From a virus, in IMG/VR virus record IMGVR_UViG_3300050821_001689, positions 5,958 to 69,957 of that record: 64,000 nt of DNA; one strand, given 5' to 3'. Position numbers and translations under genes: made by a program. The notes under the pieces were generated by a model. It ran no database searches, had not been told where the DNA came from, and saw only the letters and a list, made by a program, of their open reading frames with translations. Shown here piece after piece: positions 56,294 to 57,817 of the stretch; within the stretch, counting starts at the first letter, position 1; every line of letters starts with the position of its first letter.

Positions 56294-57544
56294 CTAGCTC
56301 TCCGACTTGATGAATAGTCCAGTTGGAGCAGCGGGTTGAGTAGGAGCCGCAACCGGTTGCGAAGGTGGCAACTGGAGAGGAGAACCAATCGGTGGGTCTA
56401 GGGTCTGCCAGATGACACTACCGTCCTGTGTGGTACCGCCGATTACTGGGTTGTAGACAATCGTCGTACCTGCGGGACTAGTGGTGCCCGGAACAATTAC
56501 TTCCTGGTAGGTACCCGAAGCACAGTCGAAGAATATGCTGCCTAGTCCGAAGAACTTACCGTGTGAGTAAATTACCAAGGTAATCGGAATGAACATAGCC
56601 ACATTATTCGCTTGCATCGTTATGGCACCGTTTAGAGCGAATAGCTGACCGTCGATGTTCGCTCCGGTAACTAGGGTGATGGAGGTCTTGGCGATGAGCC
56701 TTCCACTAAAAATGGAACCGGTACCGAGAGTAGCCGCACTTCCAGCGAGCCAGTAAACATTAGCCGCCTGAGCACCGCCACGGAGGACGATGGCTCCTGC
56801 CATTGTGATAGCAGTACCGACCTGGAAAATCCACACGGCATCGGCATTACCGTTAGCGTCGAGAACCACATTGCCGGTGATACCGAGAGAGTCGGGAGCA
56901 AAGTAAACTCCGGGAGCAAGAGTTCTACCTCCAATGTCAACGGCGGTTCCTAGATTGGTTACGGAACCGTCGGGGTTTTTGGCAGCCATACCTGCGTTCC
57001 AAGCCGCTAGAGCGTCAGCTTGTGCCGCGATGGCCACAAAGTCATCAATGTGTTCGGAGCCGGTAAAGAATCCTGGACCTCCAGGAGTATCGAAGCCGAC
57101 AATTGACGTTCCGGGAGCTACACCGATATCACCACGTACTTCTGAAGCGCCTGTGTTAGTTAGCGTTGTGGCCGCAAGGACCCCGAAGCCAGAAGCACGA
57201 CCTAACGATAGCCCAGCGACACCAGGAGGAAACGGAACGAATACTGTCTCCACTTCATTCGAGAACGGGCTTTCTAGACCGCCCACAAACGCCGCTACCC
57301 GGTAGAAATATCGAGAACCAGGAAGGACAGTTGAGTCAGTATAGGTGGGCTCGACCCCCGAAGCGAAAACTAGCGGGGAAGGGTTTAGTGGCAGCAATCC
57401 CTCTTTGTTAGACGAGGCTCCACGAAAGACATCGTAGGAGACGTTTAGTTCCGTATTGGGATTCCAATTTAGAGTTACTTGGGACATGGGCTTTTCCTTT
57501 AATTTGACGAGAAGAGAGAACGAACGACTAGCGACTTGTGCCAT
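56294..57544 (-). CDS. FN3 + DUF3494 ice-binding-family protein
   Basis: FN3 (VTLNWNP...YFYRVAA...ES.FSNE); FGVLAATTLTNTG, LAPGVY, VWIFQ, NVYW DUF3494 motifs; second SD+ATG at 57487. Confidence 0.85.
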   Translation of the reverse strand: MAQVASRSFSLLVKLKEKPMSQVTLNWNPNTELNVSYDVFRGASSNKEGLLPLNPSPLVFASGVEPTYTDSTVLPGSRYFYRVAAFVGGLESPFSNEVETVFVPFPPGVAGLSLGRASGFGVLAATTLTNTGASEVRGDIGVAPGTSIVGFDTPGGPGFFTGSEHIDDFVAIAAQADALAAWNAGMAAKNPDGSVTNLGTAVDIGGRTLAPGVYFAPDSLGITGNVVLDANGNADAVWIFQVGTAITMAGAIVLRGGAQAANVYWLAGSAATLGTGSIFSGRLIAKTSITLVTGANIDGQLFALNGAITMQANNVAMFIPITLVIYSHGKFFGLGSIFFDCASGTYQEVIVPGTTSPAGTTIVYNPVIGGTTQDGSVIWQTLDPPIGSPLQLPPSQPVAAPTQPAAPTGLFIKSES

Positions 57545-57817
57545 TTAGGCACCCGAGTCGGTAACTTGGACCGTGAAGTTGAAGGCTCCTCCGACAGTTG
57601 GAGTGCCCGCGAGAAGACCTTGAGCGGATAGAGTGATACCTGCTAGTAGGGCTCCGGCACTGATTGACCAGTTAAACGGAGCGGTTCCGCCAGAAGCCTG
57701 TAATTGCTGGCTATAGGGTTGGAATTCTACGGCATCGGGGAGGGCACCGCTAGAAACGGCAAGAGGGGCTACTGCGGCGACGTTGAGACTAAGAGCTTTA
57801 GATGCTGATTGTGGCAT
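57545..57817 (-). CDS. single putative-Ig (He_PIG/cadherin-like) domain protein, permuted
   Basis: LPDA...YSQQLQASGGTAPFNWS..GAL..G.TLS..G.LAGTPT..G.FNFTVQVTDS. Confidence 0.85.
   Translation of the reverse strand: MPQSASKALSLNVAAVAPLAVSSGALPDAVEFQPYSQQLQASGGTAPFNWSISAGALLAGITLSAQGLLAGTPTVGGAFNFTVQVTDSGA

Follow-up and report, generated by a model that had tools for sequence, protein, structure and literature searches.

A strand-split He_PIG immunoglobulin-like gene and its ice-binding-like neighbour in a phage genome: a candidate donor-strand assembly system

Donor-strand exchange is known from secreted cellular fibres, including chaperone-usher pili, TasA fibres and some archaeal pili. In chaperone-usher pilins, such as those of type 1, P and Caf1/F1 fibres, the immunoglobulin-like (Ig-like) subunit is without its seventh (G) strand; the following subunit closes the groove with an extension of its N-terminus, which lies antiparallel to strand F, and the binding head is found on a special end subunit. 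Here we describe two adjoining phage genes, called S and L, in a 64,000-nucleotide (nt) stretch of DNA (the window; positions 5,958 to 69,957 of IMG/VR virus record IMGVR_UViG_3300050821_001689), which is part of a complete viral record of 69,957 bp with direct terminal repeats. S encodes a single Ig-like domain of the He_PIG family that stops before its last strand, and L encodes a protein with an FN3-like and an ice-binding-like domain that opens with a short strand-bearing leader. An earlier note on this DNA had read the pair as a donor-strand fibre and its cap. We judge it slightly better than even that the two genes form a chaperone-free donor-strand complementation system with at least some chaining of S to S. 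If that reading is right, a known assembly principle appears in a new family, host (phage), compartment and head polarity.

The likeness to chaperone-usher pilins lies in geometry, as the contact pattern predicted between copies of S is the same. The differences are several. S belongs to another fold family (He_PIG), and the pair is encoded by a phage and presumably cytoplasmic; S is without a signal peptide by composition; and no PapD-like chaperone (PF00345) was matched at E ≤ 1 in the complete 69,957-bp genome, ushers being outside that search. Moreover, the polarity is opposite to that of tip adhesins of the FimH and PapG type, in that the head protein L donates a strand and has no groove.

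Other systems share single traits with the pair. SpyTag/SpyCatcher is an engineered split Ig-like domain, of which a strand peptide of ~13 residues is used as a docking tag on arbitrary cargo. S is likewise a domain without one strand, and the leader is found on the FN3-ice-binding protein, on another cargo and alone; unlike the engineered pair, S and the leader are natural, an isopeptide bond is not evidenced, and the acceptor S bears a tag of its own. Hoc-type proteins and the frameshift-added Ig domains of tailed phages are complete domains, covalently part of a structural or decoration protein. Like them, S is a small Ig-like module beside head genes, plausibly surface-exposed and adhesive, but it belongs to a strand-split gene pair.

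Among cellular proteins, the tandem He_PIG adhesins belong to the same family as S (40–67% identity) and have the same succession of VTD loop, G strand, short linker and A strand, so that a chain of S would mimic their rod. These adhesins are covalent repeats of 1100–2000 amino acids (aa), whereas S is a single repeat cut in the F-G loop into separate genes. L resembles the DUF3494 ice-binding proteins (7bwy, 6eio, 3wp9 and 4nu2) in core sequence and fold and differs from them in being phage-borne and in having an FN3 domain, a C-terminal beta domain, a conserved C-terminal strand and a docking leader; its ice binding is only putative. Chaperone-free donor-strand exchange of a beta-sandwich subunit, as proposed for S, has been described for the TasA biofilm fibres of Bacillus subtilis (PMC9674648). 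The fold of TasA is unrelated, and this matrix protein, which cells secrete, is not known to have a separate cargo gene that bears the same strand. In a literature search that covered journals outside subscription, the accessible portions of the sources held no phage donor-strand Ig fibre, no split He_PIG domain, no strand-split pair of Ig genes, and no donor-strand exchange either in a virus or in the He_PIG family.

Gene S and the split in its Ig-like domain

Gene S matches the Pfam family He_PIG (PF05345) over residues 19–89, which correspond to positions 3–83 of the 96-position profile (E = 4.7e-10; 40.2 bits, with a gathering cut-off of 24), and the S proteins of two related loci, L033 and L050, reach 49–50 bits. 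In all three S proteins scanned, the match stops at profile position 83; the domain is thus incomplete within one polypeptide and its last strand is missing from S. When the stop codon is read as X, the match widens to profile positions 4–94 (residues 20–103) and takes in the first 12 residues of L, positions 94–95 being reached only across the stop. The leader of L aligns to about positions 84–94 of the profile, and it would therefore supply the missing strand by homology.

A strand of the same type stands at the beginning of S. In natural tandem He_PIG fragments (P0025, P0027 and P0032), an ASKALSI(T/V)-type strand comes after the VTD loop, and then a linker of 3–5 residues and the A strand of the next repeat. 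The N-terminus of S has the same layout, with 4–6 residues between its first strand and strand A, which argues that it is a G strand whose link to strand A of S is of the ordinary kind found between domains. The ribosome-binding site upstream of S (Table 1), together with an in-frame TGA three codons 5' of the ATG, makes its start well defined. The earlier note had claimed that the 90-residue protein ends before the final strand of a He_PIG repeat and begins with a copy of it, and that L begins with a second copy. Coordinates, frame and Pfam agree with this, and the repeat ending from which it argued is the one seen in the three natural fragments.

This arrangement is kept throughout the family. 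A search for proteins of near length returned 33 matches to S, of which 22, of 80–97 aa, were aligned together with four translations of loci to give 26 rows; the other 11 are proteins or fragments of 88–151 aa, mostly multi-repeat He_PIG, and eight of them were read. At 53–73% identity to S, every one of the 26 rows ends in DSG[A/V], and 25 begin with M-[P/A/S]-Q and the strand, P0020 beginning 10 residues later. The ratio of nonsynonymous to synonymous differences (pN/pS) is 0.35 at a pS of 0.69 for codons 1–13 of nine S genes, and 0.47 at a pS of 0.71 for the 13 leader codons of eight L genes. Judged by these ratios, both 13-codon strands are under purifying selection with synonymous sites near saturation (pS ~0.7), and both have an alternating buried pattern.

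The junction of the two genes was compared in 14 distinct loci with DNA, namely the window, L002, L003, L004, L006, L007, L009, L011, L012, L032, L033, L035, L050 and L053; the junction of L013 is identical to that of L009 and was counted once, and the other S-type loci fetched are duplicates of the 14. In the window, the ATG of L (57542–57544) abuts the TAA of S with no change of frame. In all 14 loci the stop codon of S falls at one and the same point (TAA in 13, TAG in one), and an open reading frame (ORF) that opens with a leader-type strand follows in each. A sense codon in the place of 57545–57547, which the earlier note had taken as the mark of a recent nonsense mutation, is found in none of the 13 other loci. 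The stop being kept in 14 of 14, a recent nonsense mutation or sequencing error is ruled out. On this comparison of sequences, the split is a conserved and selected feature, far beyond chance.

The spacing of the two genes varies widely. Five loci, the window included, have the abutting, same-frame TAAATG (spacing 0), two have TAATG with a 1-nt overlap (-1), three have a 1-nt spacer (+1) and two have a 2-nt spacer (+2), one of these with a GTG start; in L012 a spacer of 24 nt holds in-frame stops and the second gene has its own ribosome-binding site, as it has in L011 after a spacer of 31 nt. These spacings bear on the possibility that recoding, be it read-through, a frameshift or an unusual code, yields a single polypeptide from S and L. 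The single frame across TAAATG in the window and four other loci, and the complete He_PIG match of the read-through product, would suit such a route. Fusion by reading one stop is possible in those five loci, but in the other nine the genes lie in other frames or are separated by further in-frame stops; the six spacings (-1, 0, +1, +2, 24 and 31 nt), the TAG in place of TAA at one locus and the normal reading of other phage genes under table 11 add to this, and recoding is considered barely credible. Because the gene frames differ between loci, read-through or another genetic code is ruled out as a general route, and with it the similar cap by stop read-through that the earlier note had offered as a variant.

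Fused forms were also sought directly. He_PIG was found in none of 11 near-length relatives of the L N-terminus, S-like and L-like parts shared one ORF in none of 80 metagenome loci, and PF11999 was present in none of 120 listed longer homologues of S, this last being a weak result as the list is crowded by giant repeat proteins. Two further ideas about the region were set aside. A conserved C-terminal "LKxxV" of upstream genes was considered as a third strand, but it overlaps the ribosome-binding site of S and the genes are not homologous. Recombination homology between the two strands was considered as well, but their 39-nt stretches differ at many positions by eye.

The leader of L and its linkage to S

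When viral contigs were scanned with the L alignment, 79 loci were retained. Seven of them, all already-known S loci, have S-like sequence, and the L genes of all seven carry the leader. The FN3-ice-binding loci without S number 13 (12 distinct), and all of their L genes begin directly at FN3, with no leader; the closest case is L005, whose L is 81% identical to that of the window. Across 20 rows of the L family, S and the leader occur both or neither without exception, the leader being present in nine of nine S-linked and none of 11 S-less genes. A tree was built from 20 L proteins (nine with S and 11 without) after removal of the leader columns; it omits the duplicate L119, the short L126, and L035 and L053, both truncated at contig ends. 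On this tree, the S-plus-leader state has changed at least four times, by gain or loss, and all of these changes are forced by well-supported branches. As the tree and the alignments have it, S plus the leader is a mobile cassette, and its point of joining is exactly the former start codon of L.

That former start appears to be still recognizable. The linker after the leader is rich in Lys and Glu, and its purine-rich codons together with Met20 look like the ribosome-binding site and start codon that L had ancestrally; position 57487, where the earlier note had the element begin, is the first base of this codon 20. Met20 is almost invariant in the family and is replaced by Leu in P0037 and P0038, in which the leader ATG must therefore be the start. 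A leaderless isoform of L is likely made as well. Public gene calls of 394–395 aa (P0041 and P0045), on the same contigs as L003 and L004, begin at codon 20, so that the leader has been missed in protein databases; annotators should be warned that such calls hide it.

The leader is not confined to L. In L033 it has a GTG start 2 nt after the S stop and heads a different cargo of 59 aa, which has a CarboxypepD_reg-like match below the cut-off (profile 18–56 of 82, E = 2.4e-5) and adjoins small downstream ORFs and an ORF with a collagen-like repeat. In L009, and identically in L013, the leader follows S alone as a mini-ORF of 11 codons, and in L050 as one of 17 codons; these mini-ORFs may be either capping peptides or remnants of deletions. 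A GC-rich hairpin follows the L009 mini-ORF. Between the window and L032, the L proteins are 96% identical and have the same leader while the S proteins are only 64% identical, a mosaicism that suggests recombination at the S/L junction. The other cargo, the lone leaders and this mosaicism point to a generic docking role of the leader.

The offset strands might, on the other hand, be no more than the trace of a host tandem He_PIG adhesin captured with shifted borders, with no role in assembly, which would leave S as a six-stranded domain or a non-working one. Among longer proteins, the nearest listed relatives of S are giant tandem He_PIG proteins of cells (40–67% identity), L too looks cut from a repeat array with shifted borders, and S persists without L in L009/L013 and L050. 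Such a history does not readily account for borders that are exact in every one of the 14 loci and 26 proteins in spite of synonymous saturation and divergence to 53–73% identity, nor for the pN/pS below 0.5 and the buried alternation of both strands, nor for the lack of a leader in all 11 S-less L genes. A functionless relic is thus considered improbable.

Structure models and the proposed assembly

The AlphaFold2 (AF2) model of the S monomer, made with the 26-row alignment, has a predicted local distance difference test score (pLDDT) of 92 and contains strands at residues 35–38, 48–55, 61–63, 68–71 and 81–87 only, with no G strand. Its residues 1–19 are confidently placed but unpaired and not in a strand. 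The monomer does not self-complement in the model; self-complementation is what the earlier note had held to speak against exchange. Cis complementation is also geometrically unlikely, as a linker of 4–6 residues cannot span the domain. A Foldseek search of the S model against the PDB gave only weak Ig-like matches, the best with E = 0.066.

When three copies of S were modelled together, the interface score ipSAE was 0.61 (0.62, 0.59 and 0.61 in separate runs) against 0.00 for the best control, the runs shared at least 95% of contacts and the partner pLDDT was at least 84. The mark for this score was reached by 20 of 30 solved homo-pairs and by one of 23 solved single chains, a calibration made on two copies, not three, and with alignments of its own. 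The interface sets residues 1–16 of one S against residues 75–90 and 18–33 of the next. The pairing is antiparallel to strand F at 85-6, 83-7, 81-9 and 79-12/13 and parallel to strand A at 19-5, 21-7, 26-11 and 29-13. As modelled, the N-strand of S would fill the canonical G-strand slot of its neighbour in trans. The AF2 model of the L monomer (23 rows) has a pLDDT of 80.8, and residues 1–18 of its leader fall below 50 as coil, which is how a free donor strand should look.

Being hydrophobic, the N-terminus of S could also be read as a secretion signal or membrane anchor, in keeping with the best 10-residue Kyte-Doolittle mean in the first 34 residues, whose median over 26 sequences is 2.14. 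Lys or Arg, however, occurs within the first eight residues in only five of the 26, and Asp or Glu lies inside the stretch in several. Its counterpart in the tandem arrays is strand G with the linker and strand A; it also aligns to the He_PIG profile from position 3 on, and it is modelled at pLDDT 87–91 with no helix. In addition, L is without such a stretch (best leader mean 0.43–1.52), so an exported S would never meet L. A signal or anchor is very unlikely on these grounds.

In the donor-strand reading, S would be a He_PIG domain cut in the F-G loop, with an open groove in the place of strand G. Since the linker of its N-strand is too short for its own groove, the strand must enter another molecule, and the N-strand of one S would fill the groove of the next, giving a non-covalent copy of the tandem He_PIG rod. 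The leader of L would be a second G-type strand on a flexible linker; as L has a donor strand without a groove, it would take the last free groove, and each chain would bear one FN3/ice-binding-like head. Chain length would be set by the ratio of S to L, with the stop-start coupling keeping S in excess, and the free donor strand at the other end would be loose or plugged into some virion protein. The fibre-with-cap picture is plausible; the docking of L, the polymer length and the place on the particle are parts of it that we infer. The full picture, that is, a phage-encoded, cytoplasmic and chaperone-free donor-strand system in which a 270-nt gene yields an Ig rod with its length set by the expression ratio, a leader-bearing protein plugs the end, the leader acts as a swappable tag and sometimes as a lone cap, and the L tail maybe forms a second joint, is proposed tentatively, as somewhat less than an even prospect.

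Complementation need not lead to chains. S might be a fixed 1:1(:1) adaptor, completed by the leader of L and docked through its N-strand, by edge-strand addition, on another phage protein such as the capsid near the portal, with one head per site. All of the complementation evidence fits this equally well, and the cassette does adjoin head genes, with the terminase and a portal-size ORF in the window and a portal-sized or capsid-like gene in L004, L006 and L007; the leader-only mini-ORFs would then merely stabilise S as a plain decoration domain. Yet a groove-bearing partner was not found in the phage genome, the S strand is of the same kind as the leader, the model confidently puts it in another S, and nothing visible blocks S-S insertion when S is in excess. 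An adaptor of this kind is regarded as unlikely, with a chance that is small but real.

Several observations weigh against assembly by donor strand, or against its extension into chains. The three-copy score expresses the confidence of the model itself and may stem from covalent tandem Ig arrays that it has memorised. The insertion of the N-strand into a neighbour, as the earlier note had it, is reproduced in the three-copy model, but only one S-S interface is confidently listed there, which leaves chains of more than two without the same backing. L007 and P0024 have Glu at the inward position 9 of the S strand. Because S and the leader are contiguous DNA, each joint gain or loss can be one insertion or deletion, and their linkage is not independent proof of binding; the good ribosome-binding site at codon 20 means that much of L may be made without the leader. 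As to an acceptor for the free S strand, He_PIG occurs once only in the genome, and no other ORF has a D-x-G-x ending or a leader-motif start. Neither S nor L is assigned to the virion by a Pfam or PHROG annotation, and the case for donor-strand assembly here is built from sequence and models.

If the donor-strand reading is true, an extended adhesive appendage would be obtained from a 90-codon gene, sparing genome space, and the transfer of a 13-codon tag would be enough to swap heads. An explanation would be at hand for some short "hypothetical" Ig genes and the 11–17-codon mini-ORFs that adjoin them, and the pair would provide protein engineering with a natural, small, self-assembling tag and groove.

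Domains of L and the genomic setting

Coordinates of the features described are collected in Table 1; genes in the region around S and L lie on the minus strand.

Table 1. Positions of features of the S-L region (window coordinates, unless a related locus is named) and the basis of each assignment
Feature	Position	Strand	Basis or remark
Gene S, 90-aa He_PIG Ig-like domain without strand G	57545..57817	minus	ORF, Pfam, AF2, family alignment
S ribosome-binding site AGGTGA, six bases 5' of ATG	57824..57829	minus	read from sequence
S codons 1-13, N-terminal G-type donor strand (predicted), inward-facing L9, L11, V13	57779..57817	minus	tandem-array layout, pN/pS, three-copy model
S stop TAA	57545-57547	minus	
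TAAATG stop-start junction, in F-G loop of Ig domain	57542..57547	minus	sequence
Gene L, 416 aa: leader strand, FN3, ice-binding-like domain, small beta domain, Pro-rich linker, C-terminal strand	56294..57544	minus	ORF, Pfam, AF2, Foldseek
L codons 1-13, leader, second G-type strand, with F9, L11, V13	57506..57544	minus	He_PIG alignment across stop, AF2, pN/pS
Purine-rich linker codons (AAGGA 57494-57498) and internal ATG of codon 20 (57485-57487)	57485..57498	minus	start in leaderless relatives; possible second start
FN3-like domain, residues 20-104, without start of first strand	57233..57487	minus	Pfam fn3, AF2
Ice-binding-like (DUF3494) beta-solenoid, residues 122-315	56600..57181	minus	Pfam PF11999, Foldseek
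C-terminal tail, residues 404-416, P-x-A-P-T-G-L-x-I-x-S-E-x	56297..56335	minus	homologous to FN3-repeat start
Terminator-like hairpin and T run	57870-57889	minus	between 106-aa gene and S; weak
106-aa ORF	between terminase and S	minus	
Large terminase	58261-59895	minus	
Several small ORFs, then 824-aa ORF	beyond L	minus	
Leader heading 59-aa cargo	L033 2770-2949		
Leader-only mini-ORF, 11 codons	L009 3272-3307		
Leader-only mini-ORF, 17 codons	L050 1118-1171		
Relatives of L with ~90-aa insert	L006 2365-3876; L007 2508-4019; L011 3302-4801; L012 3298-4989		also P0037, P0064

The core of L matches PF11999 (Ice_binding) with E = 6.6e-51 and 173.4 bits against a cut-off of 28.7. Its AF2 model retrieved 7bwy_A in Foldseek (E = 1.6e-17, TM-score 0.94 on the target, 39% identity), among 31 matches to solved ice-binding proteins with E ≤ 0.001, and as modelled the core is an ice-binding-protein fold. 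The FN3-like domain before it, with strands at residues 23–26, 36–42, 67–70 and 80–87 in the model, matches Pfam fn3 below the cut-off (E = 0.089, profile 13–83 of 84). At the other end of L, the tail is modelled as a strand at residues 411–415 (pLDDT ~73) after a disordered linker at 385–399. Across 11 sequences A406, P407, T408, G409, L410, S414 and E415 do not vary, and relatives of 40% identity still have the tail, as do leaderless ones. In the tandem FN3 arrays that match L, the tail motif opens each repeat. L thus looks circularly offset, with an FN3 domain that is without its first ~12 profile positions and an FN3-start motif at the C-terminus, and the tail may complete FN3 in cis or in a neighbour, which would make a second strand-complementation joint.

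Some relatives of L carry an insert of ~90 aa with the motif G-F-T-N-A-x-N-N-G-x-F-x-C-T, which sits in a loop of the ice-binding domain in some and lies inside FN3 in others (L012, L118–L127). It looks like a mobile inserted domain.

In the surroundings of the pair, the terminator-like hairpin 5' of S suggests that S and L may be a separate transcription unit. The region has four terminator-like sites where 2.3 are expected, a weak signal that is not above chance, and a promoter scan likewise gave no signal above chance. The 824-aa ORF is taken to be the portal from its position and size, with no family match. This ORF, a 1932-aa protein and 13 more neighbours of S and L (37800–54200 and 55200–58220) matched no PHROG or Pfam family, except for one 93-aa protein that matches two PHROGs and one sub-threshold match to Extensin, the sole hit of a Pfam scan of eight proteins of the structural region. 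A PHROG scan of S, L and eight neighbours matched only the 93-aa protein, which is unrelated to S and L and whose two PHROGs are both of unknown function. Going by these scans, the phage group is poorly charted by family databases. Among the nearest listed longer proteins related to S, several bear names from Acidobacteriota (Tunturibacter, Bryobacter, Bryobacteraceae and Candidatus Acidiferrum), a hint at the phylum of the host and at where the captured repeat came from.

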